IMG/VR virus record: IMGVR_UViG_3300025602_000002
Coordinates: 102,718-166,717 of that record
DNA from: a virus
Lineage: Duplodnaviria; Heunggongvirae; Uroviricota; Caudoviricetes
Reading direction: 5' to 3' (one strand)
DNA: 64,000 nt
In this document: positions 9,906 to 63,965 of the stretch, piece by piece
Layout of the letters: every line of letters begins with the position of its first letter
How positions within the stretch are numbered: the first letter of the stretch is position 1
Notes under the pieces: model-generated
Databases searched by the model: none
What the model was told of the DNA's origin: nothing
What the model saw: only the letters and a program-made list of their open reading frames with translations
Position numbers and translations under genes: made by a program

Positions 9906-9950
9906 TACGCGAAGATGTTTCCCAATTACATCACCTAACCATTTTTTTTG

Positions 9951-10116: not shown

Positions 10117-10210
10117 GTAAAGAGCGACGCGATACTTTTTTCTGCAGTTATTATATTGCGCGCTCCCATCTCCTTCTGCTCTTACACGCAAGCGATGGCA
10201 GATGAGTCTG

Positions 10211-10776: not shown

Positions 10777-11133
10777 TTATTCAATTCCTTCTTCTTTTTT
10801 CCATTTCTGGTAACGTTCAACTCTTTCCAAATATATCTCATACTCGGCTCGAGTTCCGCCTTTGCACCCTCCGTGACCGTCTGATCTGATCTGCCAACCA
10901 ACAAAGGCATAATGATCCTTGCATTTAGCTTCATATTTCGCTAATTCGTCTTCTTCAATAGGAAAAAAGTCATAAATTTCTGTTAAACGTTTAAAGGTGT
11001 AGTTGTCATGAGCGTTTGCTCTTGTGCCGTCTGAATATTTTATAGGTTTATAGCTTCTATAGCAATTGTTTGATTCGTCTAATTCCCATATATAGGAATC
11101 GTCTGGCCTGACTATATATTTTGGATTTTTCAT
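10777..11133 (-). CDS. Hypothetical protein
   Basis: ORF of 118 aa, same frame as and adjacent to the HAD phosphatase. Confidence 0.4.
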   Translation of the reverse strand: MKNPKYIVRPDDSYIWELDESNNCYRSYKPIKYSDGTRANAHDNYTFKRLTEIYDFFPIEEDELAKYEAKCKDHYAFVGWQIRSDGHGGCKGGTRAEYEIYLERVERYQKWKKEEGIE

Positions 11134-11153
11134 TTTTTAGTTCCTAAGTTAAT

Positions 11154-11242
11154 TGGGGTGTCGGACGGGATTTGAACCCGCATGAGGAGCAACTCCAACT
11201 CGGGTCACAGCCGAGTGCATTACCAAATCTGCCACCGACAAC
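11154..11242 (-). tRNA. tRNA-His(GTG) with an encoded G-1 and a long variable arm
   Basis: Anticodon stem CTCGG/CCGAG with loop CTGTGAC. The extra 5' G pairs with discriminator C73, which is the His identity element. CCA is encoded. The 17-nt variable arm and a U1-C72 mismatch are unusual. Confidence 0.5.
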
Positions 11243-11243
11243 G

Positions 11244-11327
11244 GGCTGATGGTAGGATTCGAACCTACGTGGACTTTCGTCACCTGATTACAAATCAGGA
11301 CCTTTCGACCGCTCAGGTAACACCAGC
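11244..11327 (-). tRNA. tRNA with anticodon TGT (Thr-like) and class-II-like long variable arm
   Basis: Acceptor GCTGGTG/CATCAGC, anticodon stem CCTGA/TCAGG with loop TTTGTAA, T-arm GTAGG-TTCGAAT-CCTAC. The architecture is atypical. Confidence 0.45.
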
Positions 11328-11337
11328 TCTATTTAAA

Positions 11338-11362
11338 AGTGGGGACGCTTGGCCCCCACGTA
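11338..11362 (-). terminator. Rho-independent terminator downstream of the NAMPT gene
   Basis: Hairpin GTGGGG-ACGCTTG-GCCCCCAC followed on the minus strand by TTTTAAATAG. Confidence 0.5.
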
Positions 11363-11363
11363 T

Positions 11364-22609: not shown

Positions 22610-23524
22610 TTAGAAGTTTCCGTAGTTTACTTGGAAACATTGTAGACCTAAGTCTTTACGCCATAGACCAACTACTTGGTCTCTATCATCAAACACGCAA
22701 AATACGTTGTATTTATCTTTAACGTGTTCATCATAAAGTTTGCGTTTAAGAATTGAATCTCTTATATTATGCTCAAACAATGGTCTCATGAACATCTTCC
22801 AATGAGGAAACGGAAGGTTTGCTTTCAAAAACTGTCTAGTTTCTGAAAGGTATTTTTCCGATCTTCCAGATAAAAAGATTATTTGGTATCCCTGTTTGTC
22901 CATAACGTGAAGAATTTCCCCCAAAATCGCATTGTAAGTATCGTTCTCACAAGTAGAGGCGTCATAAGGGTTACGGCCTTTAAGGAATGCCATCGTGCCG
23001 TCTAAGTCACAAATGATTGCCTTAGGTAAGCCGTCTACCAACTCAACCGTGCCTGGAGGCTCAGGATAGTCGTGAGGCTCATCTTTCTTTAGAAACCTAC
23101 TGTACATATCATAAATAACTTTAGAGCCTACATGGGCCGATCCTGTACGTAATGCGTCTCGATCAATGGCATCAAATACATCTGTAGGGAATTCTCTAAC
23201 CACAACTAATACGTCGTGCTTAACTTCCCGTAAAATGTTATAGTCCGCCACTATTTTTCTAATATGCTCCTCATTTGAGCTGTGTAAGTTTGTATCATCT
23301 ACGAATACTGATCTTCCGGCATCTAAGTATCTAAAGATTAAAGAGTCTCTAATTGCTTTAATTATTTTCTCATTTCCTTTAGAGTATACTCCACCATCAA
23401 CCATGCTTCGTAGACTATCCCTATTTACACGTTTGTATGTATCTGGCATTTTATCCATCATATCTACGGCATACGAAGTCTTACCGCTTGCGGGTAACCC
23501 CCGTAGTATTATTACTTGTCTCAT
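22610..23524 (-). CDS. pseT: Polynucleotide 5'-kinase / 3'-phosphatase (T4 Pnk-like)
   Basis: Walker A GLPASGKTSYA and a C-terminal HAD motif IICDLDGTM. Confidence 0.8.
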   Translation of the reverse strand: MRQVIILRGLPASGKTSYAVDMMDKMPDTYKRVNRDSLRSMVDGGVYSKGNEKIIKAIRDSLIFRYLDAGRSVFVDDTNLHSSNEEHIRKIVADYNILREVKHDVLVVVREFPTDVFDAIDRDALRTGSAHVGSKVIYDMYSRFLKKDEPHDYPEPPGTVELVDGLPKAIICDLDGTMAFLKGRNPYDASTCENDTYNAILGEILHVMDKQGYQIIFLSGRSEKYLSETRQFLKANLPFPHWKMFMRPLFEHNIRDSILKRKLYDEHVKDKYNVFCVFDDRDQVVGLWRKDLGLQCFQVNYGNF

Positions 23525-23548
23525 TTTGTATTTCCTTTTATTTATGGC

Positions 23549-23932
23549 TTAGTCTCTATCCCATAACTTTATAGAACTCTCCGCCGTACTCTGGGCGTGT
23601 TTGTACTCAACGTCAGAGTATTGGTATAAAGATGCTTTCCACATATCTTTATTTCGTGCAAATTGTTCAAGATGCTCGGGAGCTATCACTTCTGTTATTG
23701 ACAAACAGTTTCCAGCTGATTCACCTAACTGTGAACTATGTACGCGAGTATTTACATACAAAGTGTCAGAGTCAAAGTCTAACCAGTCGAAAGAGCGCCC
23801 CTCACCCTTTGGAATGAATTTAGTATTTTTGAGTTGGCATATCTCTAACACTGAAGGCTCATATAACCCAGGAAGCACCATTAATACTATATCGCCATCT
23901 TTCAGTGTTTTTAAAAGCTGGTTACTTTTCAT
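23549..23932 (-). CDS. Hypothetical protein
   Basis: 127 aa, between Pnk and the RNA ligase. Confidence 0.4.
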   Translation of the reverse strand: MKSNQLLKTLKDGDIVLMVLPGLYEPSVLEICQLKNTKFIPKGEGRSFDWLDFDSDTLYVNTRVHSSQLGESAGNCLSITEVIAPEHLEQFARNKDMWKASLYQYSDVEYKHAQSTAESSIKLWDRD

Positions 23933-24997
23933 TTATTCTCCAAACTTAATTAAGAAGTCAGGGTTAATTACTTTAAAACTAAAGCTACCATCTCTCGCTC
24001 TAATCACAATTCCCTCTCTTGGGATATCAGGATTTAGAAGGCTTGGGCCTTTAGAAAGCTCTACTAATTCGTCTACTGTATGGTTTAACACCATCTTTGG
24101 ATTAAGGACAGGTACAGTATTAAATATTCTATCTAACCCTCGTACGCGAACTTCCCCCTCAGTTGTGTAGTCCCCAAATATAAGATTTAGAAAGCTCTCA
24201 ATACTTCCAAAGCCACCATCTTGTATAGTAAAAGCGTTAAACATTTTTACTTCTGTAGCAGACAATTTGTATTTATTTTTCTGAATCCCTGGCCCCAGTA
24301 ATTCTCCTTGGAAAATTACATTTATACCAAGTTTAGACATTTTCTCTTCTGCGTCAATATCTCTAGCGACTTTCCAGAAAGAATTTTTGTCATTCTCTAT
24401 TAGGTCAAGCTTCCGACTGCATACTCCGAAAGGTGTTGCTTTTCGGTAGTTAGGTGCATAATAAAAGGTAGATGACGATCCATCTAATTTCTCTGTTATG
24501 TAGCACTCTGTTCCTGCCCATTCTTTTATTTCATCTACAAGATTCTGTACACGTTCTTCATCCGTCTTAGGAATCCAGGAAGGTCTGTGGCCTTTAATCT
24601 GGCCACTTAAGCATGCTGGAATGGGTGCTTCATATTTTACTACTTTCAAAAGTTCACTTACGTCTGTTCCCACTTCGGGGCCATCGGCGAGCTCTTCGAA
24701 AGTATCTAATGGCATGGCTAGCCCTTGACTAATTTGCTTACGCAATTTTATAGTTCGTAAGCGATAACCTCTTGTGCCGTCATCTATTGTTTTGACACCG
24801 TTTTTCTTTAAGAATTCAAACGGCTCTATTTCTGGCAACAAAGAGTCCACTTCAAAGTAGACGCATTTATCACCTATTTGAAATTCCCCCTTCTTAACTA
24901 CTAGATGCCAGCCTTTTACAGTTGCTTTTTCAATTACATCTGCTCCAGAGATAGGCTCTAAATTAGCTATGAGTTGGATTGTTGCTAAATGTCTCAT
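23933..24997 (-). CDS. ATP-dependent RNA ligase
   Basis: Nucleotidyltransferase motif I ITEKLDGSS (KxDG); 354 aa; sits next to the Pnk gene. Confidence 0.65.
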   Translation of the reverse strand: MRHLATIQLIANLEPISGADVIEKATVKGWHLVVKKGEFQIGDKCVYFEVDSLLPEIEPFEFLKKNGVKTIDDGTRGYRLRTIKLRKQISQGLAMPLDTFEELADGPEVGTDVSELLKVVKYEAPIPACLSGQIKGHRPSWIPKTDEERVQNLVDEIKEWAGTECYITEKLDGSSSTFYYAPNYRKATPFGVCSRKLDLIENDKNSFWKVARDIDAEEKMSKLGINVIFQGELLGPGIQKNKYKLSATEVKMFNAFTIQDGGFGSIESFLNLIFGDYTTEGEVRVRGLDRIFNTVPVLNPKMVLNHTVDELVELSKGPSLLNPDIPREGIVIRARDGSFSFKVINPDFLIKFGE

Positions 24998-24998
24998 T

Positions 24999-25520
24999 TT
25001 ATAATTTCCATTCTTGTTTTAAAAAGTTTATTCTGGCTGTTATACTTTTATAATATTGCCAACCTGCTGGAGACTCCCAGCGATTGCCCGCCCTGTAGGA
25101 TCTTACAGTTTTGGACCAGCTACCATTATGTCTCTCATTCTTCCAATAGGTTAGTTCAGTTATTGCTTCTCTACAACTAAGTATGTGACTATCTATGAGC
25201 CATTGGGCCACTACATTCCTATTAAAGGGTGTGTCCTCTATCTCATCTCTATGTCTACTCATATATGTGTTGATATTGATATGGTGAGCTCCTGCGGAAG
25301 GGTCTTGCAAATTTACAAGGTATTTACCTCCTGCAGATTCTTGCCACTCAATAGCAGCTAATGTCCACCCTAAATCAAAGGGCACCCCATATTCATAGGA
25401 TGCCCGTATTGATTCTTGTTGATGGCTTGTTAAAGCTTTCCATTCCTCAGGTAAGGCTCCAACGCATAAACATATATTTGTGAGTAGTATTAGTAAATAT
25501 CTAATCGAGCCAACTTGCAA
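24999..25520 (-). CDS. Hypothetical secreted protein, possibly lytic transglycosylase-like
   Basis: Signal-peptide-like N-terminus. The EWQESAGG motif weakly resembles an SLT domain. Confidence 0.25.
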   Translation of the reverse strand: MQVGSIRYLLILLTNICLCVGALPEEWKALTSHQQESIRASYEYGVPFDLGWTLAAIEWQESAGGKYLVNLQDPSAGAHHININTYMSRHRDEIEDTPFNRNVVAQWLIDSHILSCREAITELTYWKNERHNGSWSKTVRSYRAGNRWESPAGWQYYKSITARINFLKQEWKL

Positions 25521-25701
25521 TTGCAGCTATACCGCCTACAGCTAAAAATAATAAGACGAAGCCAAGCCACAGCGGGGCAGTTATCCACCACCAACTCCAT
25601 GTAATGACTCCAACTAACTTTAGGACAAGTAATACTATAAATAGTATGAATCCGGGATTTTTCATTTTTTCTCCGTTTGTTTTGGTTTTAAATATTTCCA
25701 A
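25501..25701 (-). CDS. Small membrane protein
   Basis: Two transmembrane helices, TAG stop. Confidence 0.35.
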   Translation of the reverse strand: MEIFKTKTNGEKMKNPGFILFIVLLVLKLVGVITWSWWWITAPLWLGFVLLFLAVGGIAAIASWLD

Positions 25702-26735
25702 ATTAAGGGCTTTATGTTTTTCCCTTGTAACATTGTAAATACTAAAGAAATTATTTGTTTATTTCCAATATTTATGACTTTTTCTGCTACTGCTTTGGAA
25801 GTTCGTTTTTTCATATCAATTGATTCTGGGAAACTAGTTATAAGGTGCATGTATTGTTTACAAGCAGTGTTTGCTAATATCACATAATTCTCTCTAAAGT
25901 TATCTATAGAGGTATGAAGCCATTTATAGTATTCATCTGGTACAATATCAATTAACTCTTGTATATCTAATTCTGGATCTGATAAGTATTTCCATACCGT
26001 TTTATCATTGCAAAGCTGCAATATACGGTGATGTCTTACATACCAGTCAAATTTTACTTTAACTCTGAACCCGTTATCATATGCTAACACAAATCCTTCT
26101 TTGTTTTCTTGATTTGGTACATTATATAACTCACTTACATCGCAATCATGTTCATATAGCTCTGTTCTTGGTATACAAGTAGTAACAGCGTGCAACCCTA
26201 TCTCTCTGCCAGTAAACGTATCGCGTACTGCCAATAGCCTTAGGTCGCTCTCTGGGTAGGTGATACAGGTCATCCCCCCTTTCTTAAGAGTAGGTGTTAA
26301 GAACTCATAGCAGTATGTGAAGTCCTCCCTTATAGTAAGGTCAGGGTATTTTTCTTCTAAGACTACATTGGCCTCTGTAATATATTCATTATCAAAAGAG
26401 CCTCTTGTAGATTTAATTAAATGCCCCCTCCACATAACCATTATAAATAGACATCCGTCTAGTTTATTAAAAATGCTGTAGTGGTCATCTGGGAGCTCGA
26501 TACCTAGTCCTTCTAATTCTGTATAGTTGAAAAATTTTCTAAAAGGGTTGGCTACTACAGTTCCATATTCATCTAGTATAAGACCCCTACATCTAGTAGT
26601 GGTATCGTTCCAATTTCGAGCATACTGTGTGGCATGGGTATAATTATATATCCAAAGTGGAAACTCTGGATGTTTTCTTCGCTTTACCCACCCTTCCTTT
26701 ATTTGGGTTTCTAAAACTGTTAGGACTGTATTCAT
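25662..26735 (-). CDS. Second RNA ligase (Rnl2-like family)
   Basis: KxDG motif FNKLDGCLFIM; 357 aa. Confidence 0.5.
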   Translation of the reverse strand: MNTVLTVLETQIKEGWVKRRKHPEFPLWIYNYTHATQYARNWNDTTTRCRGLILDEYGTVVANPFRKFFNYTELEGLGIELPDDHYSIFNKLDGCLFIMVMWRGHLIKSTRGSFDNEYITEANVVLEEKYPDLTIREDFTYCYEFLTPTLKKGGMTCITYPESDLRLLAVRDTFTGREIGLHAVTTCIPRTELYEHDCDVSELYNVPNQENKEGFVLAYDNGFRVKVKFDWYVRHHRILQLCNDKTVWKYLSDPELDIQELIDIVPDEYYKWLHTSIDNFRENYVILANTACKQYMHLITSFPESIDMKKRTSKAVAEKVINIGNKQIISLVFTMLQGKNIKPLIWKYLKPKQTEKK

Positions 26736-34133: not shown

Positions 34134-36913
34134 CTACTCCTTGTATTTTAACGTGTCTACTTCGTCTGGAATCCACCAATCGTAGTAATATTCATTATCA
34201 AACTGAACGTGATTGACCCACAAGTTGTACTCGCGTGCAGCCATCTCCGAACTGTTTTCCATTTTATGATGAACTAGGTCTCTAGATATCCATATACTGG
34301 CAAATAAACAGAATACTGCTATTAACTCCCAATATATAGCTTCTGTTTTCCATCTTGGTAATCCAATTGCTTGAAAATACCACGGTACTAAAAAACATAT
34401 AACTAGAAATCCTACTATCCATGATAACATCTTAACCTCCTTCCATTTTTCTTAATTCTTTAAAGCTTCGCCTTTAATTATTTGTTCTATAATCATTCCA
34501 GAATATTCTTCATCCTGATTTACAACCCAATAATTAGGTGCTGCTTCTCTTCCTGTTTTCTCTCTATATTTTTGTATTTTTATTATTATTGCCTGCAGAA
34601 CTAAGCGTTCATCAGGCTCTAGACCTTTGTCAATATCTTCAGTTTTCAGTATTAGGAATAAGTTGTCTTTTATGTTTACTGTACTCATCGGTCTAGATGG
34701 TTAGTTGTTTTATGCTTCTGCCTCTATTCCTGAGCTGGCAGTTGCTCGTTCGATACTAATTGTATCTATTGCTTCTCCGTCGTCTAAAGCTATAGCAGCC
34801 CTTACTAACGACTCAAGTTCGTACATGGTTACCGGTAAACAGGCTCCCAATCGATCTTCTTGATTTTTATGATGCACTACTTTTAATAAGTTTTGCATTA
34901 ACTTCATGTTATCTCCTTTTTCTTATACCTTATTTATTGTTATATTTTTGGCGTTCGCTGTTAGCTAATGCCGAGTATCTACTGGCATAATCCATTGAAA
35001 GTTTTTCAGATACGAAACTAGCCATATTTAAATGTTGAGAAAAGGAAACCATCTCTTCTCCAGGAGTAAACCAGAAAACTCTAACTTCTAAGATACCGTC
35101 TGCATTTTTTCTAAGAGAAAGCTCTACTCTATCTGCCTTTGTAAGTTTAAGAATTTGTTGAAGAGGCTTTATGTCGTTCATAATTTTACATCTCTCAGGT
35201 TTTGTCGTAAGATATCTCCTAAAACTACAACATAGTAAATAGTAGTATCCTCAAATAATATTTTAGTGTTTATCCACTTGCGAGTTACATAACTAGAGGC
35301 ATCTTCTTTATAAGTAGCATAAGATACCCCCATGTAGAACATCACCTCATCGAACTCTACCGGGATAGTGCCGGGTTCTAACTTCATAAGGACTTCTCCA
35401 CATTTAGGGAGAAATTCTACCTTATATTCTAAGATTTCACCTTTTACTATTTTTCTTAATATTTCAGCATTAGTATAGATCATTAGGGTTTTGTTCATTC
35501 GTTTTACAAAAGTCATTGGGGTGCTCATTCGGAACGGATCCCTCCCATTTTGAAAAAGTCTACATTACTTAACCCGGTAAATTTGAAAGAATCTCTGTCT
35601 TTTTTCGAGTATTTATCGCAGACATAATGTTCCATTTCATCAACAAACTGGTTAAAATCCATTTTGTTGAAATAGTTTATAGTATCAATAGCTTCTTTTA
35701 ATTCGTGAAAGTTATGTTTTATTTTTCTTATTGCACACCCGCCTTTAGTTGTGCGAACTATTTCAGTATTCATGAGTTCTCCCCTTTTGCTTATTATATG
35801 GTTCTTTCAAGTAAAAAAAATCACCTAATTCTGAACATTTTCCTTTTTCTGATTCGGTATAGCAGCATGTCCTATGATATTTATGTTTTTGATATTTCGT
35901 ATGACACACACATTCACAGCTTTCCCATTTTTCTTTTGGTTCTGGTATCTTATCCACCAACCATACCACGAAAGGAGTTTCCCAATAAAAATTACCAGAT
36001 TCTCCGGCTTCATATTGAGCTCTTACATTTTCCTCTCTCAAATACTGTTCCATTAGTTTTGTTAATTTCATTCTTTCTCCTTCGGCTTAATAGACTCAGC
36101 AAGCCTCTTGCCTAGATCTGTAGCGCATCTAACTATGTCGTTAGCCATAATATCTAAATACTGTTGAGTATAATTCTCAGGAATATTAAAACAGAATGAT
36201 TCGTCCTCTTCGTTAACAAAGGATATTGTACCTTCATATCTATCATGTCGTTTATGTTCTTTCTTTTCCCAACCATATCCTTGTTTAAACCTGATACTTA
36301 TATTATCAAGTTTCCAATTATTTTCCATTATTTCTCCTTATTTAGGGTTTAATAGCAACATACAAATCTAAGGCTTTATATATTATTTCGCCTTCTTGTA
36401 AATTCGCCCTCACCTTTTCTTCAATATTGCCCCACTCCATAAGATTTTTATAATTGTATCTTTTGTCATGAAAGAAATTAATACTTTTTAGCAAATCTTT
36501 TTCAATCTGTGTTAAATCATTTTTCATTTAGTCTCCTCCAGTTTCTCTGGTATACTGTTCATATAGGCAATCTAATTCACCTGCTGAAAACTCACAATCT
36601 AACTGAGTTGTCGGTCCATAATGACTTAGATGCCCTTCTTCTATTAACCATTCTATGAAGTCTTCCATTGTTGTTAGGTCCCCTTGATAAAATATGTTTC
36701 TTTGTGCCAATATGGGCTTTCTTTTACAACACTTCGATTTTTTTGTTTCTTAAAACATTTTTCACATACCCTGTGCTTTTTTGTAGCCATTCCAAAAGTC
36801 CAATAGATCCAGCTATGCCAGCAAAACCACTTTTTTCGTTGCTTAGTATGTAAAATTAGGTCGAGCTCTTCTCTAGTTAGTCTGTAACTTGTTGGGGTGA
36901 AATCAATTACCAT
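34134..36913 (-). other. Run of 11 small minus-strand ORFs (60-124 aa) of unknown function
   Basis: Track ORFs 34134..34430, 34452..34688, 34710..34907, 34930..35181, 35178..35528, 35525..35773, 35763..36071 (Cys/His-rich), 36068..36328, 36342..36527, 36528..36710 and 36674..36913. They are tightly packed, several with ATGA or TAAATG junctions. Confidence 0.4.
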
Positions 36914-41654: not shown

Positions 41655-41975
41655 GCGCAAAAGTGGTCAAAAGGTGGTTGAAAGTGGTAAGCAATTGGTC
41701 GAAAGTGGTAACGAAAGTGCTCAAAGTGGTAAAGAAAAGTGTAGTTTTGGTAAGACCTATATGTTGTGTAATGGGTATATAGCTTGTGTACGATATAGTT
41801 CTGCACAACATATGGGTAACCTATATAGCTGCTTGCTCTATCTAAAATAGAAATACACTGGCTTTTTTTGATGGTTTTTTTACCACTTTTGATGTTTTGC
41901 TTACCAGTTTGGGGCGTTCGCTTACCACTTTAGGGGGGTTGGCTTACCAGTTTGGGGGTTTTGCTTACCAGTGCC
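41655..41975. repeat. Iteron-like dyad: about 6 direct copies of AAAGTGGTAA (41655-41755), then 5 inverted copies TTACCA(C/G)TTT (41875-41975), around a 120-bp spacer
   Basis: Read directly from the sequence. The opposite orientation of the two arrays suggests a protein-binding origin or regulatory region. Confidence 0.6.
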
Positions 41976-41999
41976 ATTTTGGTCGAAATTGGGTGTAAG

Positions 42000-42660
42000 T
42001 ATAGGTAAATAATAAAGATAAGAGAAAAGTATAAAAAATCCAAACTACACTTTTGAATCCATTACTACACCATTACTACACATAGTAAAAAAATATATGT
42101 ATATATAATAACAATAACTTATTTGGTCTAAACTACGATTACTACGATTACTACGCTTTCTGGAAGGAGAGACACGTCAGCAAATATTTATAAATTGTCG
42201 ATCTCTTTTTTTTCTGATTAAGGACCCTCTAGTTTTGGCCTAAAAGTGTAGTAATGTAGTTTAGTATTGATAAGTGTATGTAAATAAAGAATATATCCAA
42301 ACTACACTTTTGAAAATAGGTGTAGTAACGTGTAGTAATGAAATTGGTAATTGCTATAAATGCTTAAAAATACTGATGTTATAGATAAAAAAAAGTGTAG
42401 TTTAGAATTTGGAAATATTTCCTTAATTAGGATACGCTTGTCTTTTTAGTATATAAATGATGGTGTAAGTGATGGTGTAAATGGTGTTCCGTGCAGGCTA
42501 CAAGCCTACTTTTTCCTAAAGTTAATTACAAGCGGTTTGCTAGCAACCAACTTGTGTTCTCCTTAGTACGCATTATTGATATATATGCTAACGGAACATT
42601 CAGGAAGTTTAATGGCCTTTCGAGAAGAAAAAGATAGCACGGCCAATTACGGCCAATTAT
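42000..42660. repeat. Repeat-rich AT-rich intergenic region
   Basis: An 18-bp exact direct repeat CCAAACTACACTTTTGAA at about 42039 and 42296. Inverted copies AAAAGTGTAGT at about 42252 and 42400. Tandem ATTACTACG x3 at about 42128. GATGGTGTAA x2 at about 42458. GGCCAATTA(C/T) x2 at 42641. Confidence 0.55.
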
Positions 42661-42682
42661 TCTTCTTCAGGATGTAGTAGTA

Positions 42683-44949: not shown

Positions 44950-45135
44950 TTAATTAGTTTCGATAAGATATTTAGCAAAATCAGATAAGCTTACGTCTTT
45001 AGGTAATTGTTTCATGTATTTAGAGATAATAACTTTTAGTTCTAGTTCTTTGTTTGATTTTGTAGAACGTAAGGCTTTATTAATTTTGAACACAACCTCT
45101 TTATCGAAGAGATTGTTTAAATCGAATTTAGTCAA
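44950..45135 (-). CDS. Hypothetical small protein
   Basis: 61 aa; first gene downstream of a promoter-like repeat. Confidence 0.3.
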   Translation of the reverse strand: MTKFDLNNLFDKEVVFKINKALRSTKSNKELELKVIISKYMKQLPKDVSLSDFAKYLIETN

Positions 45136-45214
45136 TGATGGGTCTCCTGTGTATTCCAGTATTCTTATACCGGTATTTATTAAATAATGTTATAGGGTTA
45201 AATATTGTCATAGG

Positions 45215-45246
45215 TCTTATACCTACAAATTTAAGGTAAAAAAAAG
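45215..45246 (-). promoter_or_regulatory. Promoter-like conserved repeat, copy 1 (variant)
   Basis: TCTTATACC...TTTAAGGTAAAAAAAAG. On the minus strand this reads TTTTTTTACCTTAAA...GGTATAAGA, upstream of CDS 44950..45135. Confidence 0.4.
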
Positions 45247-45820
45247 AATACGCTTGTAAGATGGCACAGAGTGCACGGGCGTAAGGCCAATTTTTCAGGT
45301 GGCTTTCCTGGTATTCTTTTTATGGAAGATGAGAGTGGCTGAGGGGTAAACTCTTCTTCCGAGGGATGCAACTCCCTTTGCGAGACTTATTAATCCCCGC
45401 ACCACCTACGTTAAGTAGGAAGCCCTATCTTAAATTCTTTTCCAAATTGAAGGCTCTAGCCTTGCAACTCCTTCGGATAGACACCCAACGTTTTTATTAC
45501 GTCTTTGGCCCAGTTTTATGAAGTTTGTACTTTTCCTGAGAATACAGTTAGTACGGTATATCTTTAAAGGGATCATTTCAATTCCCCTCGTTTCCACGCA
45601 GACTTACGTCGTCGTAATACACCAATCACAGCTCCAGGTATGGAGCCAGGTCTTTCCACTTACATTAACTCTACAATTTCACGACTATCTTAGCTGCCGC
45701 CAAGCTTAACCGCTTCCTTATAAATACTGCTGCAACCCTTGCGAGGCGCAGAGCTCGACGTTATACAGGCCGATATTAGTGATCTTTTATTATAAGCAGC
45801 CAGGAATCTAATTGCTTTCA
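45240..45820. other. Structured GC-richer noncoding region at the strand switch
   Basis: No ORF of 60 aa or more on either strand except a short spurious one. Hairpins such as GAGGGA-TGCAAC-TCCCTT are present. It lies next to the tRNA-like element at 45824-45894. Confidence 0.35.
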
Positions 45821-45823
45821 TTA

Positions 45824-45894
45824 TAAATGACGAGAATCGAACTCGTGATCTACGGATTAATATTCCGTTGCTCTACCAACTGAGCTACATTATG
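45824..45894 (-). tRNA. tRNA-like element with an ATATTAA anticodon loop (positions 34-36 = ATT)
   Basis: Canonical D-arm GCTC-AGTTGGTA-GAGC and T-arm ACGAG-TTCGATT-CTCGT, with anticodon stem ACGGA/TCCGT. The acceptor strands pair poorly. Probably a pseudogene or unusual tRNA. Confidence 0.3.
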
Positions 45895-46428
45895 GTTTTT
45901 CTGTGATTGGGAGGACGCGTTCCCGGTTGTGGTTACGTAGTTTTCAGCCACATAATGCCACTCGCCCTCGTAAGTCATTAGCCATGACAGCCTCCGATCC
46001 TTCATCATAGTAGTTGTCTCTTCTTGACTTAGAAGCCAATGAAGGCCTCAATATCTTGATCCCGACAAACTATATAATTGATAACCCGCTTGACAGACAG
46101 GATATCTTGCGATTACTATACAGACATTTCTGCCTACCCCTCAGGGGATACGTATCTCGACCTTCACGCCTCGCAGTTAGCCTGGAGTGTTGGACTATTT
46201 TTTACAAGATAAATAGAAGTTCGCAGTGTATAAATGTTTGCACTCCCGAAGGAGAACAACGCAATGCCAGGTATAATTTCACAGACCCGACTGCTTTTAG
46301 TCCCATTGCTGGGGTTATCTTTAACTGGATGTCATACCACCCAGGTGCTAATTAAGGCTAAGCCTTGATTGCGAAATTCTTATACCAGAAAATATTGTTT
46401 TTTAAAAGACATTGGGTTATATTCAAGT

Positions 46429-47928
46429 ATGGAAAGAAATTATGAAGTATTTAGAGCTAGGGTAGTTTCAGTAGAGAGTCCTGATGTAAACGCCCTAGAT
46501 AAAAAAGACATATATATTCAGGCAATAGATGAGACAGATCCTGAGAAGACGTATTTGGCGTTACCTCCGATATTTATACCAACTTCTGCATTTGGGTCGG
46601 GAGTAGTATCAGTGCCTCCTGAAAATCAGGAGTGTTTGGTGGCCTTGGACAAATGAAATAATGTTGCACAGATTCTTACTTATATCCCCTCAGGACTATC
46701 TTCGGCCTTCGGCGGTTTATCTGCAGAAGCTGTACCAGAGGGGGGAGTGTTATTAAAAATAGGTGGAAAGAACAAAACTAACTTCCTAATGGCTCCAGAT
46801 GGATTCTTTAGTTGGTTTTCTAACGCCTTCGCTGAAATAACTTTGGATGGAGCTTATAAGAAACTAAATATTACAACTAAACGATATGAAAGACGAAGCG
46901 CAACTAATTTTGTTAGAGACTCATATCATCCTAAGAAATCTGCAGGAATAGATAAAGGAGCTACATCACATTTAGAAGTATATTCAAAGTTTGATGATAC
47001 TACTGGGTATCTTGACCATATCTCAGAAAACACTGAGACTCACCGCAGTATTCCTTTCAAGCACCAATTCACAGATCAAACTATTATAAAGTCTGGATAC
47101 ATACCTCATGTTAAGAATTTAAAAGGCACGCCTTATTCCCATTTGTATCAATTAGAGACTAGACAAGCTACTGGAGGTTCTAAACAGAAGAATACCTATA
47201 CTAAGTTACATCTAGGGTATCAAGGGGCTACAGATCTATTTGATATAGGAGAAGAACACCCGGCAGGTTCTTTATTTCATTGGGTATTTAAACGAGCAGT
47301 AACAAATAATAATAGCTCAATGATAAATAGATTTGGGAAATTAGAGTCCGGGAGTTTAGCGGGAGAGTTATATAGACATCAAATATATGATGGAACTTTT
47401 GATGCTACAGCCTGGAAAGCTGGGCAAGGTTACGATTATACTTTTATCAACACCGGAATTAAACAGCAATATGTAAGTAGTTTTGGCAAGTTAAACACGG
47501 GTAGAATATGAGGAAGACACATCCATCAGCTAGAAACCACAACTAATGGTAAAATGTATACTAAAGAGTTTGGCGGTACAGATATATTAAAGACAACAGT
47601 GCAGTCCGGGGATGTTGCAACTCCAGAGTTGAAATTGACAAAGACGTTAAATAATGAGGCATACACTGTTAAACTGAATCTAGGAGATACTACTCTTACT
47701 ATAACTTTGGATAGCAGCGGAATAACTCTTGACGTGCCTGAAGGTAAAAATGTGTATCTCGGAGGCTCAGAGGGTCAGACGTTAGTTACTAAAGAGTTTG
47801 TTACAGAATTATACGCGGGACATACACATGGTACAGGAGTGGGACCTTCGTCACCTCCAATAATTCAGCCAAGTATTTATGATCCTTTGGATGAGAATAT
47901 TTATACTGTGAAGACTTTATCAGAATAA
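46429..47928 (+). CDS. Structural (baseplate/tail-spike-like?) protein with in-frame TGA codons at 46654-46656 and 47509-47511
   Basis: Track ORFs 46369..46656, 46747..47511 and 47554..47928 are in one frame with no TAA or TAG. Coding-like composition continues through both TGA codons. The frame ends at TAA 47926. An ATG at 46429 follows a weak RBS. Confidence 0.55.
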
Positions 47929-48477: not shown

Positions 48478-48550
48478 TTGACTAAAAACCTAAGCTTAGT
48501 TATATTGAAATGTTAGAAGAAACAAAGTTAGTGATTAATTGGAGATAATA

Positions 48551-52106: not shown

Positions 52107-52130
52107 AGCTTTTTAAGGTAAAAAGAAGAG
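52107..52130. promoter_or_regulatory. Partial copy of the conserved repeat (TTTTTAAGGTAAAAAGAAG)
   Basis: Matches the 3' half of the repeat only; it sits at the junction of the plus and minus blocks. Confidence 0.25.
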
Positions 52131-52176
52131 CTTTCACTCTCCTTTTGTGCAACTGACGTGTTACACAACGTAATTA

Positions 52177-52383
52177 CTAATCGATAGCAGATTCTTCCAA
52201 GGATGGAAGGTCTGTATTGCGATTATCATAGGCTCGTAATCCAAATGCCCCAGCTGCAACACTTAGGACTACTAATCCAGTGTTTTTCACTGCGGGTTTT
52301 GAGGCAACGGCTTTAATACCATTAACTGCTTTACGAAAATAACCTACTTCTGGGGTCTCAACGACCTTAAGTTCATCAGACAT
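52177..52383 (-). CDS. Small hypothetical protein
   Basis: 68 aa with one hydrophobic helix. Confidence 0.3.
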   Translation of the reverse strand: MSDELKVVETPEVGYFRKAVNGIKAVASKPAVKNTGLVVLSVAAGAFGLRAYDNRNTDLPSLEESAID

Positions 52384-52672
52384 GTTATGTCTCCTTTTAC
52401 GTTATTTAGTTGTTTAATTAACGCCAGACATGGATTTTTCTCATTGTATCCTCTGGCGCATCATTCTTATACCCTATTTGGGGCCAAAATAGCCCATTTT
52501 TGACTAATATGAGCATCATACACTTAATTATTAACGTTTTAAACTCGATCTTGCGGATTAAGGTTCCATATCATGCCCCCTATCCAAATGCACAGAATAA
52601 AACTAAATTGAAGGGTTTAAAATTTTTCCTATATGAGATTTTTTATTTTAAAATTTTTTAATTTATTTTTTT

Positions 52673-59336: not shown

Positions 59337-59771
59337 TCAGTTTTTTTCATCCTGAGCAGCTTCAAAGATAAGCACTATATCGTCACTTACTAAAAGAGAT
59401 ACTATATCATAGTAAGGATTATATCCCCCTATGAATACATTATCTTTATAATAAATCCAAGCGCCTCTATCAGCATCCCAGTGAATCGTATCAAACTCGA
59501 AGAGATCCACTGTGTCATTTAAACGATCACGTACTATTAATATATGCTCTCCCTCAAAATAATGCCCATCTTCCAAGTCTACGAATATTGTAGCATATGA
59601 AGATTGGGTTTCAACGACGGTTGGATCGAAGGAAGTATAACTAACTGTATAGCTATAAAACGGACCAACTGTTACGCTTTGAGGGTGTATTCTATCTTTA
59701 GCCTGTACTTGGCAACCTATTCCAATGATTATTATTAAATCAAATAGGGCAACCTTTATTAAGTTTTTCAT
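59337..59771 (-). CDS. Secreted protein or lipoprotein
   Basis: Signal peptide MKNLIKVALFDLIIIIGIGCQVQA. Confidence 0.4.
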   Translation of the reverse strand: MKNLIKVALFDLIIIIGIGCQVQAKDRIHPQSVTVGPFYSYTVSYTSFDPTVVETQSSYATIFVDLEDGHYFEGEHILIVRDRLNDTVDLFEFDTIHWDADRGAWIYYKDNVFIGGYNPYYDIVSLLVSDDIVLIFEAAQDEKN

Positions 59772-59809
59772 AATAGTTTCCTTTCATAATTTATGATTGA
59801 CTTGTATCT

Positions 59810-59843
59810 ATACTTCTTATACCCTTTTTAAGGTAAAAAAAAG
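59810..59843 (-). promoter_or_regulatory. Promoter-like conserved repeat, copy 3
   Basis: CTATACTTCTTATACCCTTTTTAAGGTAAAAAAAAG, 40 bp upstream of the minus-strand CDS 59337..59771. Confidence 0.45.
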
Positions 59844-60118
59844 AGTATATATTTAAGTTAAAAAAGCAGCTATATCCGTTAGGATACAATCATATACGCT
59901 ACTTTTTTTATAAGACCTTCTACAGCTTCGACCTTCTGTTTTCAGCTTGTGCGTTTTGTTAGGAGGAACGCTTCCTTTTTCAAAATTTAATTATTTTACG
60001 CAAGCTCCTATTTCTTTGAAGAAGGACTTGTATGGCGAGATAATAATCCAATAATTTTAGTTTTTCAAGATTGCTAATTGCCATGATATACCTTTCGTTA
60101 TTTTAGTTATTGTTTGCT

Positions 60119-60152
60119 CTATTATTCTTATACCCTTTTTAAGGTAAAAAAA
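60119..60152 (-). promoter_or_regulatory. Promoter-like conserved repeat, copy 4
   Basis: TTCTTATACCCTTTTTAAGGTAAAAAAATAC. No ORF of 60 aa or more lies immediately downstream on the minus strand, so a small gene or ncRNA may be present. Confidence 0.4.
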
Positions 60153-60410
60153 TACACCTCCCCCGGAGGGGAGGGTACAACTCTTTCTTTTATCTCAGGA
60201 ACAGGAATTAACCTTGCCCCTGGACTGGAAATACAAATGACCTCTACAGCCTTTGTACTTACCGTTTTTGATATCTTGTTTCTGGTTCTTATTCTGTAGC
60301 TGGCGTAAAAAGCTTCTACGGCGAGCAACAGCTTCTGGGGATAAGACGTCAAACGCCTCATTATTTTGAGCAGCCATAATCTTCCTTTCATTTTTAGTTT
60401 ATGTTTAACT

Positions 60411-60445
60411 CTAGTATTCTTATACCCATTTTAAGATAAAAAAAG
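60411..60445 (-). promoter_or_regulatory. Promoter-like conserved repeat, copy 5
   Basis: TTCTTATACCCATTTTAAGATAAAAAAAG, upstream of the minus-strand ORFs 60195..60377 and 60128..60391. Confidence 0.4.
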
Positions 60446-60524
60446 AACTAGCGGGTTGTTACACTAGCTCTTTTTTATAGTTTCTCACTTTATGCTACTG
60501 CATAAGCGGTTCCGCAGTAGAAAA

Positions 60525-60776
60525 TTAAAGATTGTGCACTTCAAATTGATAATGACCTGGAATCGGTTTGACTCCTATAGTCACATCAATAGCGAAATCT
60601 CGAGCATCTTGCCATCGATCATTTTCTGTTATACCCTCATAATTCCATACAACTACGTATACTCTCCAGGCTGCCTTATGAGCGCATATATCCTGTCCCA
60701 CATTAGGGACGTGATTGGTGGAAAAGGTTAGATTCGTTTTCGAAGAATCGTCAAAAGCTATTCGCATCCTAACCAT
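60525..60776 (-). CDS. Hypothetical protein
   Basis: ORF of 83 aa. Confidence 0.3.
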   Translation of the reverse strand: MVRMRIAFDDSSKTNLTFSTNHVPNVGQDICAHKAAWRVYVVVWNYEGITENDRWQDARDFAIDVTIGVKPIPGHYQFEVHNL

Positions 60777-60788
60777 AATTTTATCTCC

Positions 60789-60974
60789 TTACCATAGGTT
60801 ATCTTTGCTTCGAAACCATTTACAACTGCTAATACAATTAACAGATTGTAAACAGCGTTTTAAACTGCAGTTATACCAGTAGCATTTTTTACACGGCTTT
60901 TCAAAATAGCCAGCGTATAAAACACTACCAGCAACTACACAACATCCAATGACTAGAGCAATAACTCCTGTCAT
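60789..60974 (-). CDS. Small membrane protein
   Basis: 61 aa with one transmembrane helix. Confidence 0.3.
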   Translation of the reverse strand: MTGVIALVIGCCVVAGSVLYAGYFEKPCKKCYWYNCSLKRCLQSVNCISSCKWFRSKDNLW

Positions 60975-61073
60975 TTTTTACGACTCCTATTGGAGTTCCA
61001 GGCATAAACCCATTTCCATCCGTGATAGCCAATGAAGACTATCCACACAATGATTACAATAGTTACTAGCATC

Positions 61074-61331
61074 CTACTTTCTCCACCAGATACTAAATGC
61101 GCGTTCCCAATCTTCGAGAACATCAGCTGTATCCTTTCCATGTACAACCCAAACTCCAATACCAGCTATCACTAGTAATACTACGATAGCTCCTATTAGT
61201 CCGAAAATGAGCCATAACACAGAGAAGGCTATCTTAAGTACAAAGATTACAAAGTAACCAATGAGCAAGAGTACCAACCCTATGACTATTCTGGCCATAA
61301 ACGGCGCTTCATATAATGATTTAAAATCCAT
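61074..61331 (-). CDS. Membrane protein
   Basis: Two long transmembrane helices. Confidence 0.35.
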   Translation of the reverse strand: MDFKSLYEAPFMARIVIGLVLLLIGYFVIFVLKIAFSVLWLIFGLIGAIVVLLVIAGIGVWVVHGKDTADVLEDWERAFSIWWRK

Positions 61332-61352
61332 TATTTTCCTTTTTGTTATTTA

Positions 61353-61835
61353 TTAAAATTTATCTCTATCCTCTACGCGGTCAGCACACTTACAATCCTC
61401 AATACAATGCTCATCAGCTTCATAAGGTACTTCCATATCCAAATCGGGCAGTAGTTTCTTAGTGGCGGCCTCAGGATTAGTTAAATACAGAGTCAAATTT
61501 TCTATAAAGTCAGTCAAGTCTGAAAATACTAAAAGTTGACAACCTACATGTACGATAACTCCATTATTTACTCTTTCTATCCTAATATCGTGAATTTGGT
61601 ACCCTTCTTTACCAACACCCCAATAGCTATGCGACCCTCCAATTTCTTCCCTATCTAATATTAAGAAATTATATTTGGGAGGAAACTTAGCGCTATAGAA
61701 ATAGCCGTTGTCGTCTAACCAAAGTACCACCTCGTTTGCAACATTATTAATGGTGTCTAGTAGCAGCGGACCCGTAAAGGTATGCATGATATACCCATTT
61801 TTTGCGTGACTAATAATTATTTTATTTTTGTCCAT
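61353..61835 (-). CDS. Hypothetical protein
   Basis: ORF of 160 aa. Confidence 0.4.
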   Translation of the reverse strand: MDKNKIIISHAKNGYIMHTFTGPLLLDTINNVANEVVLWLDDNGYFYSAKFPPKYNFLILDREEIGGSHSYWGVGKEGYQIHDIRIERVNNGVIVHVGCQLLVFSDLTDFIENLTLYLTNPEAATKKLLPDLDMEVPYEADEHCIEDCKCADRVEDRDKF

Positions 61836-62011
61836 TAGCCTTCCTCATTTACAAATGTTGCAAAATTTTGATCGCACGGAGGCAGACCTTCGGCCTCACA
61901 CCAATTTTCAAAGTCATTATAAAATGCTAAAAGCTCCTCAAAATCGAAGCACGATAACACATCTTTTATTATCTCTGTATCCATATTCTCTCTATTTCTC
62001 CATTTCTTATA

Positions 62012-62515
62012 TTATTTGTTAAACCACACTACATGGCTAAAATCTGTTCTCACATTATCAGGTACATCACTAGGGTAAATGTGTATATCCGAAGCCCGGG
62101 TCGAAGTAGCATACACGCCATCTCCATCAGAATCAAGAAATCCCCCACATTCACAATTTCCAATAAAATCGTCTAAAGAAAAAAGATCTCCAAACGTAGG
62201 CACATAATCTTCGTCTTGAAATACGCTCAAGTATTGCTTTTCAGCTTCTGATACCGGGTATTTAATTGCAAGTATTCGACCCTCTAACCATAGGTTCTTT
62301 GGAGTCGGAGGTAGCACTGAATGATATACAAGAGTATCTACTTCGTCGGTGATGTAGACAACTTCAACGGATATCAATTGACTATTTACGGGCTCTTTAT
62401 AACTGCTAAGCCCTTGGTTGAGCACTCCAGTAAAAATTGCTACCATAATGGATACGACAAATACTATAGCTATGGCATATCTCTTTTTAGTGAATTGTGA
62501 TTTTGTGTGTAACAT
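62012..62515 (-). CDS. Membrane-anchored protein
   Basis: N-terminal transmembrane helix; 167 aa. Confidence 0.4.
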   Translation of the reverse strand: MLHTKSQFTKKRYAIAIVFVVSIMVAIFTGVLNQGLSSYKEPVNSQLISVEVVYITDEVDTLVYHSVLPPTPKNLWLEGRILAIKYPVSEAEKQYLSVFQDEDYVPTFGDLFSLDDFIGNCECGGFLDSDGDGVYATSTRASDIHIYPSDVPDNVRTDFSHVVWFNK

Positions 62516-62533
62516 TATTTTCCTTTTCTTTTA

Positions 62534-62920
62534 TTAATTGTAAAATTTTTGTACTAATTCATCAAGCTCACTACGAGCTAAACTAAATGTAAGAATCACA
62601 TCCTTACAAGGTTTATAGCTATTAGTGCTATTTTTCTTTAATTTCATAGTTTGTGTTAATTGAATTACAATGCTTCCATCCCTTAGATACTGTGCCTGAA
62701 GATTTCCGGAGACTATAGTATCACCAAAACCTCTAGACATTAGCCAGAATCTCAAATCAGGATTAAAGTGCACAGGAACAATGTGAATATGGTCAGGATT
62801 ACCTGTTAAAATCTTTAACACTACTTCTTTAAAAGCTCTAGTGCTTATATCAATGTATGGACGCGTGTCCATCCTTAAGAATTGCCCATTATCTATCCAA
62901 GCGACCCAGCGAGCTATCAT
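62534..62920 (-). CDS. Hypothetical protein
   Basis: ORF of 128 aa. Confidence 0.4.
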   Translation of the reverse strand: MIARWVAWIDNGQFLRMDTRPYIDISTRAFKEVVLKILTGNPDHIHIVPVHFNPDLRFWLMSRGFGDTIVSGNLQAQYLRDGSIVIQLTQTMKLKKNSTNSYKPCKDVILTFSLARSELDELVQKFYN

Positions 62921-62955
62921 ATGCTTCCTTTCATTTAATTAGTTTGGTATTGAAA

Positions 62956-63300
62956 TTACTTGCTCAGCAAAAATTCCATTAGTTGTTTATACTTCTTTTG
63001 TATATTAGTGTCTTTATCAACGGCAAAACGTATGTTATGATGAACACAAGTAACAGCCGTATTTGCTAAATTGGCAAGCGCCTGCATAGCATATATAACG
63101 TCTATAATTCCCCCAGAATAACTCTTACTTATTTGAACAGGTATCACTGTAGAAGCAGTGTATATTTCTTTATTAAGTATTATATCACGTTGAATTAAGG
63201 CTTTTTTAATGGCCAGTTTATTAGCTTCAATTTCTTTAGCTCTTGTCTCTAATTTACGTTCGTACCAGTATTCCAATTCCCACATCGGCTTCCATGACAT
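62956..63300 (-). CDS. Hypothetical protein
   Basis: 114 aa; downstream of a promoter-like repeat. Confidence 0.4.
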   Translation of the reverse strand: MSWKPMWELEYWYERKLETRAKEIEANKLAIKKALIQRDIILNKEIYTASTVIPVQISKSYSGGIIDVIYAMQALANLANTAVTCVHHNIRFAVDKDTNIQKKYKQLMEFLLSK

Positions 63301-63342
63301 ACTACTGACTCCTTTCTATTATTTATAAATATTGATTGTCTT

Positions 63343-63378
63343 CTATACTTCTTATACCCTTTTTAAGGTAAAAAAAGG
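63343..63378 (-). promoter_or_regulatory. Promoter-like conserved repeat, copy 6
   Basis: CTTCTATACTTCTTATACCCTTTTTAAGGTAAAAAAAGGAG, 40 bp upstream of CDS 62956..63300. It shares the extended CTATACTTCTTATACCC with copy 3. Confidence 0.45.
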
Positions 63379-63380
63379 AG

Positions 63381-63965
63381 CTACCCTTTTTCCGAACAAA
63401 ACTTAGTTTCATAAGCTAGTATCGCTCTCATTATTAACCATTCATAATATCCACATTTATCTTCACCAGAGGACTGTGTGCCGTCTGGAAGACTTTTTTG
63501 TTTAGCTCCTAACGCTAATGGGGACGAATTATTAGAATTACCTTTCATAATAATAACTACACTTTTCGGGAATAACTCTTCAAGCTTACTACGTAAGCGG
63601 GGGGATATGTCTCCCCTAGAGTATTTATTCTCACCAACTATTATATACTTCGGCTGTAGGTTATAGTTATTATACCATCCAGGAACGTGGTGTTCCATAG
63701 GGGTATCAACTAAATGTTCCGGCCGAACTATGTTTTTTCTGGGAGTTTCATACTGCAGTATTCCGTGACGTATTACCTCTTCAGGATCAAATAAAAAGAC
63801 TATCGGACGTAAAAGGTCTGCCTGTTTCTCAAACTTATATGACTTGAGATAATTCCATGCAGCATTAACTACGACACTTGCGAACTTAGTAGTTCGTGAT
63901 AGCCATATATTGGTCCAACAATCGGTGCCCTTAAAGCCAACCTTTTCATCTTCTTTAGTAATCAT
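63381..63965 (-). CDS. Hypothetical protein
   Basis: ORF of 194 aa running toward the window edge. Confidence 0.4.
   Translation of the reverse strand: MITKEDEKVGFKGTDCWTNIWLSRTTKFASVVVNAAWNYLKSYKFEKQADLLRPIVFLFDPEEVIRHGILQYETPRKNIVRPEHLVDTPMEHHVPGWYNNYNLQPKYIIVGENKYSRGDISPRLRSKLEELFPKSVVIIMKGNSNNSSPLALGAKQKSLPDGTQSSGEDKCGYYEWLIMRAILAYETKFCSEKG

Follow-up and report, generated by a model that had tools for sequence, protein, structure and literature searches.

The stretch of phage DNA analysed here (64,000 nucleotides of the IMG/VR record IMGVR_UViG_3300025602_000002, positions 102,718 to 166,717; hereafter the window) carries several near-identical copies of a 28-nt repeat upstream of minus-strand genes. 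With moderate confidence, we regard this repeat as the fullest form of a promoter specific to one gene class, fused to terminators in cassettes, in a large uncultured marine phage. It is best read as an ordinary kind of element with an unusual sequence, namely a terminator-promoter cassette on a promoter independent of a -35 element, whose consensus has no match in the collections and literature searched. The interest of the system rests on an unusual G at position -7, on two promoter classes divided by strand, and on the link to a GOLLD RNA.

The 28-nt repeat and its core motif

On the plus strand, the 28-mer TTCTTATACCCTTTTTAAGGTAAAAAAA is found exactly at 59814-59841, 60125-60152 and 63349-63376, and with two mismatches at 60417-60444. 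None of 100 dinucleotide shuffles contained a match, so that four copies in the window stand against zero expected. The repeat reported in a preliminary description of the window is therefore real, and the copies listed there at 59810, 60119, 60411 and 63343 are present, with starts set 4-6 nt too early and a variable tail included. The 17-mer said to be common to two copies was recovered as CTATACTTCTTATACCC at 59808 and 63343. A further copy given at 45215 exists in a divergent, gapped form (TTTTTTTTACCTTAAATTTGTAGGTATAAGACC, with a spacer 3 nt longer), and the partial copy at 52107 comprises the upstream half TTTTTACCTTAAAAAG without TATAAGAA. Read on the minus (coding) strand, the 28-mer consists of T7-8, followed by ACCTTAAAAAG and then by GGTATAAGAA. 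Two aspects had been missed: the composite nature of the repeat, which joins a terminator tail to a promoter, and a shorter, commoner recognition core, GGTATAAGA.

Relaxed searches revealed the long repeat as a special case of the shorter motif GGTATAAGA(A)-N3-T-R. The core GGTATAAGA occurs nine times in the window, always on the minus strand, compared to 1.02 ± 0.98 expected. The window was extended to 92 kb by its source contig (ENA ERZ23491642 scaffold_55, 138,951 bp; loci L001, L037 and L167), and coordinates beyond 64,000 are extended coordinates on this contig. The samples in which the phage is present include ERZ23491642 and ERZ27237545. Within these 92 kb, 16 core sites are located on the minus strand, which is the gene strand, and none on the plus strand. 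All 16 lie between genes, although two of them fall inside weak TTG-start ORFs (open reading frames) of a crude gene calling, which are absent from the ENA gene calls. In these 92 kb, a motif scan against gene starts, of the kind that the preliminary description had proposed for the whole genome, accordingly places the core strictly on the gene strand and in intergenic DNA rather than scattered. Core variants with one mismatch occur inside ORFs, on either strand and at chance level. The most enriched intergenic 8-mers on the minus strand are GGTATAAG, GTATAAGA and TTTTTTTA. Thirteen of the 16 sites are concentrated within 19 kb of small unannotated ORFs (52-71 kb) encoding 33-243 amino acids and almost without Pfam or PHROG matches, apart from one sub-threshold Tetraspanin hit.

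Searches for the consensus around GGTATAAGAA in phage collections and in the literature gave no match, and nothing relevant was found in the literature on TATAAGAA as a phage promoter. An exact 21-mer of the repeat had no match in IMG/VR. In the phage collection, neither megablast nor blastn nor a 40-nt motif query detected DNA relatives of the region, and no isolate phage resembling it was present.

Conservation in distant phages

Two distant relatives share the core. A pattern scan of metagenomes returned 21 loci, 19 of them single chance matches; only L028 and L029, which include a marine-sediment contig and are referred to as relative C, were true relatives. A scan of the genome collection with a loose pattern yielded at least 120 matches, mostly due to chance, and among the matches listed only L123 was useful. 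This locus belongs to relative B, a 204-kb contig found in IMG/VR as IMGVR_UViG_3300025867_000006 (the same phage as DAOQAF010000001.1) and, binned as 'Bacteroidales', in GTDB; the sequence used comprises L123 and L042, which overlap at 100% identity and together give 28.3 kb. In these 28.3 kb, 16 sites lie on the gene strand and none on the other, serving a D5-type primase and RadC, among others. Relative C has four core sites on the gene strand and none on the other, one of them identical in 33 of 33 positions to the 60125 copy (cassette 2 in Table 1).

The relationship to the window is otherwise remote. SPFH proteins of relative B are about 36% identical to those of the window, and the sole detectable homology of relative C to the window is a PNK fragment with 41-62% amino acid identity. 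The phage collection offers PNK matches of less than 40% identity at best. As the core is kept while proteins stand at 35-45% identity and the flanking genes are unrelated, a conserved reader is suggested rather than recent duplication. All sites were combined in an alignment of 36 (16 from the source contig, 16 from relative B and four from relative C), whose downstream sequences are all different. Across the three genomes, the strand bias is 36 sites to 0, and every core copy is located upstream of a gene.

Predicted start-site geometry and promoter type

In the alignment, the element reads TATAAGAA in 31 of 36 sites and TATAAATA in none. Alignment position +9 is A in 31 sites and position +13 is T in 28, while position +14 is a purine in all 36 independent sites. 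Because of this invariant purine, we infer the transcription start at +14. Counted from there, TATAAG occupies -12 to -7, with G at -14 and -13 and AA at -6/-5; the -35 region of the 36 sites contains no conserved hexamer, just a T/A-rich stretch from about -30 to -17. A start downstream of +14 is unlikely, since it would cut into the Shine-Dalgarno sequence of the short-leader sites L123:7418, L029:2845 and L042:2304, where this sequence begins 2-6 nt past +14.

This geometry is that of a bacterial -10 element preceded by the G that marks an extended -10; from sigma-70 promoters, the sites depart mainly in their invariant G at -7. Sigma-70 proteins need T at -7. The core sites deviate from the canonical sigma-70 layout (TTGACA, 17±1 bp, TATAAT, T at -7), and the earlier statement that they are not a sigma-70 -35/-10 pair is supported by this G and by two thirds of the sites having no upstream hexamer. 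They also deviate from the sigma-A pattern of Bacteroidota, whose consensus is TTTG at -33 and TAnnTTTG at -7; TAnnTTTG is enriched neither on the gene strand nor in intergenic DNA. We propose that GGTATAAGAA-N3-T-R would function as a -35-independent, extended -10-type promoter read by a bacterial-type RNA polymerase. Middle and late genes of other phages, for example the Thermus phage P23-45, are served by extended -10 promoters that have no -35 element. Common to them and to the sites described here are the -10 element, conserved bases just upstream (G at -14) and the missing -35 hexamer, whereas canonical TGnTATAAT keeps T at -7 and (G/T)GGTATAAG has the invariant G.

The likeness to T4 late promoters noted in the preliminary description holds for the architecture and fails for the sequence. 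As in the gp55/gp33/gp45 system, a single 8-bp -10-type element without -35 precedes a start a few nt downstream; TATAAATA matches the cassette element in six of eight positions and differs at positions 6 and 7. The 8-mer could be a late promoter of the true T4 type, which drives late genes through a gp55-like sigma acting with gp33 and the sliding clamp; this would also be in keeping with the T4-like accessory genes of the window (Rnl1, Rnl2 and PNK). We nevertheless consider it quite improbable. GG is required here just upstream of the 8-mer, and TATAAATA is neither enriched nor strand-biased (13 copies per strand, 3-4 of them intergenic). The genes served, i.e. small ORFs, a tRNA, the GOLLD RNA and, in relative B, the D5-type primase and RadC, do not look late, and none is structural; relative B carries its D5-like primase instead of the T4 gp41/gp61 pair. 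Neither gp55 nor gp33 turned up when the window was scanned against Pfam and PHROG and the flanks were covered by precomputed Pfam lists, 92 kb altogether.

Three other promoter types were considered and rejected. For a single-subunit, T7-like promoter, positions -4 to -2 are unconserved and no polymerase gene was seen in the sequence examined. For an archaeal or eukaryotic TATA box, the conserved T-R follows only 5 nt downstream of the element. N4-type promoters form DNA hairpins whose stem measures 5-7 bp and whose loop has 3 nt, and go together with a giant virion RNA polymerase; the possible TACC...GGTA pairing in the cassettes leaves a loop of 8-19 nt, which is too long, and is absent at core-only sites. 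In addition, the variant copy weakens this pairing without compensation, and no ORF of the window exceeds 563 amino acids.

Proposed terminator-promoter cassettes

In 12 of the 36 sites, distributed over all three phages, the core is preceded by a module consisting of a T-run and AC(N)TTAA, with a gap of 4-7 nt and once of 15 nt. The pattern TTTTTAYCTTAAA is present six times in the window as opposed to 0.05 times expected. Usually, the T-run comes right after a GC-rich hairpin (Table 1), which directly adjoins it in cassette 2, cassette 3 and the 52.1-kb half cassette. Predicted folding energies are -20.7 kcal/mol for cassette 2 (z-score -2.35; also found by a terminator scan), -17.6 kcal/mol for cassette 3 (z-score -5.3; none of 200 shuffles folds as well) and -20.9 kcal/mol for the half cassette (z-score -4.6). 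The T-run would double as the U-tract of the intrinsic terminator of the preceding gene, and each intergenic space of 35-60 nt would then stop and restart transcription. Relative B has cassettes of the same layout with unrelated hairpins. Since hairpin sequences differ among the copies of the window, too, the repeated unit extends from the T-run to the start site. The module was found without a core only twice, at 52112 and at extended 64746, both times where minus-strand genes meet plus-strand genes; given this position at convergent junctions and the missing core, these copies are read as terminators only.

Cassettes of this kind are known as promoter-early stem-loops (PeSLs), and those of T4-type phages are reportedly the subject of Arbiol et al. 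2010. PeSLs have been described in the T4-type phages RB49/phi1, T4/PST and KVP40/nt-1 (Comeau et al. 2014; PMC4122927). The elements of the window resemble them in the order of their parts (stem-loop terminator, promoter right behind it, Shine-Dalgarno sequence, start codon), in occurring as many near-identical copies clustered among small orphan genes, and in having degenerate half copies from which the -10 element is missing while stem-loop and upstream box remain. They would differ in the promoter: PeSL promoters are sigma-70 pairs (TTGACA/TTTACW, N17, TATAAT-like), while here GGTATAAGAA, including the G at -7, is invariant and a -35 element is missing from most sites. No T4 core gene was seen in the sequence examined, and no recombination at the cassettes was detected among the contigs compared.

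The T4 middle promoter, with a MotA box at -30, 11-13 bp and a -10 element, offers a second comparison. In the module-bearing copies, 11-12 bp separate the box TTTTTTAC, centred near -28, from the -10-like hexamer downstream. The box is unrelated to TGCTT, however, and absent at two thirds of the sites, and neither MotA nor AsiA was found in the 92 kb covered. Middle promoters following stem-loops are also documented, as the PmSL arrangement of phage nt-1 (PMC4122927).

The module also provides the evidence for an ordinary host sigma-70 promoter of the T4-early or PeSL type, which would consist of TTTACC (TTTACA in relative B), 16-17 bp and AAnnAT (AATAAT, AAGTAT or AATACT), with GGTATAAG as a conserved spacer or 'extended' element and a start about 6 nt further downstream. 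A sigma-70 scan identified TTTACC-16-AATAAT at 60148 with 9 of 12 matches; module and hexamer are 16-17 bp apart in the phage of the window and in relatives B and C, and A9 (31/36) and T13 (28/36) fill both critical positions of TAnnnT. The PeSL consensus of T4 and PST, TTTACW-N17-TAYWAT (PMC4122927), is similar. We still judge this explanation unlikely, as 24 of the 36 sites lack any -35-like hexamer, the invariant bases would fall into the spacer while the supposed -10 is weakly conserved, and the purine found at +14 in 36 of 36 sites would be left unexplained. The later start would moreover hit the Shine-Dalgarno sequence in the three short-leader sites, and the same genome contains clear TTGACT-N17-TATATT promoters without GGTATAAG.

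Within the cassettes, the module sequence TTTTTTTACC imperfectly matches TTCTTATACC, the reverse complement of GGTATAAGAA, and so repeats the core in inverted form. A stem of 10 bp with one mismatch, one wobble pair and an 8-nt loop could form in this way, and core-only sites have no such partner.

An operator for a phage DNA-binding regulator, repressor or activator, which overlaps promoters would be another way to account for GGTATAAGAA. It would fit a 10-bp element that is invariant at fixed positions in many intergenic regions, as well as the inverted module, which can be read directly from the sequence. Most sites are without the inverted partner, however, and no other common promoter element is found beside core-only sites, which would be left without a promoter. 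The fixed 4-nt distance from the core to the conserved T-R and the match to TATAAT in five of six positions fit contact with polymerase, and we regard an operator as very unlikely.

Finally, the repeat might be no transcription signal at all, and instead serve recombination, homing or RNA processing, or be left over from a mobile element. Near-identical copies of 28-34 nt in a region rich in small orphan genes could be taken in this sense, and PeSLs are recombination substrates (PMC4122927). By the same analogy, the copies proposed here as cassettes, which lie 300 bp to 3 kb apart, could serve as recombination substrates in addition to their transcriptional role. Taken as the whole explanation, it is highly improbable: terminal inverted repeats and target duplications are missing, no RNA structure is conserved (z-score -1.1), the sites of three genomes keep strictly to one strand (36 to 0) and stand upstream of genes, and gene order is identical in 24 of 24 contigs of this phage read. 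Over 4.4 kb, a further contig and the window are 100% identical. Homologue searches with the 144-amino-acid protein encoded behind cassette 1 retrieved only the protein itself, and a 160-amino-acid protein had no homologue in IMG/VR.

Table 1. Coordinates of predicted promoter cassettes, core-only sites, canonical promoters and the GOLLD RNA match, with the genes served.
Feature	Position	Strand	Composition or match	Gene served or context
Cassette 1	59808-59842	-	T8 59835-59842, ACCTTAAAAAG 59824-59834, core GGTATAAGAA 59814-59823, predicted +1 59809	59337-59771 (-), 144 amino acids
Cassette 2	60120-60174	-	GC hairpin 60157-60174, T7 60146-60152, ACCTTAAAAAG 60135-60145, core 60125-60134, predicted +1 60120	59980-60084 (-), 34 codons
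Cassette 3 (two mismatches)	60412-60476	-	hairpin ~60439-60476, T7 60438-60444, ATCTTAAAATG, core 60417-60426, predicted +1 60412	60195-60377 (-), 60 amino acids
Cassette 4	63344-63398	-	A/T-flanked hairpin 63377-63398, T7 63370-63376, core 63349-63358, predicted +1 63344	62956-63300 (-) and onward to ~60525
Half cassette	52107-52147	-	strong hairpin, then TTTTTACCTTAAAAAG; without GGTATAAGAA	
Core-only site	52459-52473	-	TAGGGTATAAGAATGATG	upstream of 52177-52383, 68 amino acids
Core-only site	46372-46386	-		heads ~840-nt gene-free stretch ending in GOLLD match
GOLLD RNA 3' domain (RF02032)	45533-45970	-	124.8 bits (below gathering cut-off of 150), E 4.3e-34, model 1-416 of 416	
Tandem pair, first	45157-45248 (whole pair)	-	T8-ACCTTAAATTTGTA-GGTATAAGAC, core 45214-45223	after GOLLD; copy first reported at 45215
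Tandem pair, second (core-only)	45162-45171	-		upstream of TTG-start ORF 44950-45135
Core-only site	34915-34929	-	AAGGTATAAGAAAAAGGAG	12 nt before ATG
Canonical promoter	48478-48506	+	TTGACT-17-TATATT	before plus-strand block
Canonical promoter	extended 64217	+	TTGACT-18-TATATT	back to back with GGTATAAGA site 64164
Canonical promoter	extended 70190	+	TTTACA-17-TATATT	back to back with GGTATAAGA site 70162

Genes and RNAs downstream of the sites

Most sites are followed by the start codon of a small ORF after 26-110 nt and, in the exceptional case of 34929, after 12 nt. In the four main copies, TATAAGAA and the ATG are separated by 39-49 nt, so that the 30-45 bp given earlier are roughly right. 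All four cassette-served genes have GAAAGG(A/T) 6-9 nt before their ATG. The copy at 60125 had been described as having no called ORF downstream and as possibly driving a small gene or a noncoding RNA. A 34-codon ORF (ATG 60084, stop 59980-59982) does follow it, with GAAAGG 7 nt upstream of the ATG, and is uncalled in the metagenome annotation. A small RNA at this position was rejected: there was no Rfam match, and the fold is no better than that of shuffled sequences (z-score -1.1), which leaves the ORF with its ribosome-binding site as the simpler reading.

Not all sites precede protein genes. The core at extended 69632 is found about 60 nt before a tRNA-Trp gene, and the core-only site at 46386 heads a stretch in which no gene was called (45135-46429). 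The match to the 3' domain of GOLLD RNA (Table 1) makes up the 3' half of the ~840 nt below this site and contains an embedded tRNA at 45822-45893, found by Rfam and missed by ARAGORN. The GOLLD RNA is probably the product of the 46386 promoter and may extend to about 46372. As the sites precede protein genes, a tRNA and a large noncoding RNA, and do so at variable distances (12 to ~110 nt to start codons), they represent a signal for transcription rather than for translation. Together with the intergenic, gene-strand position of 16 of 16 core sites in 92 kb and the conservation of the core in two distant phages, this agrees with the promoter-like character originally suggested.

A putative second promoter class, a possible specificity factor and the host

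The plus-strand blocks at 46.4-52.1, 64.27-64.74 and 70.3-82.3 kb contain no GGTATAAGA on either strand. Canonical promoters of the sigma-70 type are found in front of them instead (Table 1), two of them back to back with GGTATAAGA sites; a divergent pair of this kind is also present in relative B, at L123 2176/2189. We read these sequences as two putative promoter classes on opposite strands, of which the canonical one suits unmodified host holoenzyme. A further sequence of the canonical type lies at 46395-46423 on the plus strand, and forms of TTGACT/TTTACA/TTGTTT-N17-18-TATATT front every plus-strand block. At 46423 and at extended 79997, 5 nt separate the -10 hexamer from an ATG; these may be leaderless messages, or the true starts may lie further downstream.

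The invariant G at -7, along with canonical promoters in the same genome, suggests that the GGTATAAGAA class is read by a different specificity factor, possibly a sigma encoded by the phage or a host holoenzyme that the phage has modified. As a tentative proposal, which we regard as possible rather than probable, GGTATAAGAA-N3-TR would be the signature of an undescribed specificity factor with a -10 pocket that accepts G at -7. This factor would be common to a lineage of uncultured marine and sediment phages of about 200 kb, possibly with FCB/Bacteroidota hosts, and would control a temporal gene class including tRNAs and the GOLLD RNA, the terminator fusions acting as PeSL-like modules which shuffle small genes.

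Hints to the host are mixed. Relative C encodes a protein of 543 amino acids (L028 2623-4254) with a Por_Secre_tail type IX sorting domain (E 4e-11), which points to Bacteroidota/FCB, and relative B was binned with a Bacteroidales genome. Such binning is unreliable, since one copy of the phage under study is labelled as a Scalindua genome fragment in NCBI. The Shine-Dalgarno sequences before all four cassette-served genes and the canonical -35/-10 promoters speak against a Bacteroidia host, for which both are untypical. The recently described 'moraphage' lineage of aquatic jumbo phages, with predicted Bacteroidota hosts, has a core sigma gene and no polymerase (PMC12619734).

Several observations weigh against the interpretation as a class-specific promoter in terminator-promoter cassettes that is read by a phage factor. 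Start site and promoter function are both deduced from DNA sequence. In cassette 1, a terminator-like hairpin lies about 20 nt further upstream (~59858-59905) and none adjoins the T-run, and the hairpin of cassette 4 is weak (z-score -0.2). The module-bearing copies can be read as TTTACC-N16-AAnnAT, an ordinary sigma-70 layout. The 34929 site is doubtful because its predicted +1 falls inside its own ribosome-binding site. The contigs read show no variation and hence no evidence of recombination at the cassettes. Pfam and PHROG searches with the larger ORFs of the window, a pooled Pfam search with 80 smaller ones and precomputed Pfam lists for the flanks revealed no sigma, RNA polymerase, MotA or AsiA and no candidate factor gene in the 92 kb covered, the longest assembled contig of the phage being at least 211 kb. 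The reader may also be a host sigma with such specificity.

The motif is sharp and easy to scan for, marks transcription units in a lineage without a cultured member and separates two promoter classes by strand. It provides a directly testable promoter for a phage GOLLD RNA, whose expression and role remain poorly understood. Should the motif be read by a phage factor, this factor could be sought and characterised by way of the invariant G at -7. The cassettes further suggest that the PeSL design exists with a promoter other than the sigma-70 type of T4-type coliphages and vibriophages.

Other features of the genome

The window contains 24 tRNA genes, one of which (2676-2752, minus strand) has the anticodon CTA and is thus of the amber-suppressor type ('Pyl' in ARAGORN). 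It may point to recoding of TAG or to a defence against tRNA cleavage by the host. Sets of genes for NAD synthesis (NAPRTase, NAD synthase, NUDIX and cytidylyltransferase-like) and for RNA repair (Rnl1, Rnl2, PNK, Thg1-like and AAA ATPase) at 7304-12509 and 22610-26735 adjoin the tRNA island. Such a combination is typical of large phages that counter host tRNA cleavage. To the left of the window, ARAGORN detected a tmRNA (L037 17093-17464) with the tag peptide GRPAVKLAA, which is accompanied by further tRNA genes and by genes for uracil-DNA glycosylase, thioredoxin and PhoH.

A gene-free stretch of 870 bp at 41812-42682 is full of short direct repeats, comprising repeats of the CTGGTAAGC type with a 21-bp period and 4.8 copies, pairs of GTGTAGTAAYGG, and CGTAGTAAT with 2.7 copies. 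It is located near a change of sign in the GC skew (~40 kb) and resembles an iteron-type replication origin.

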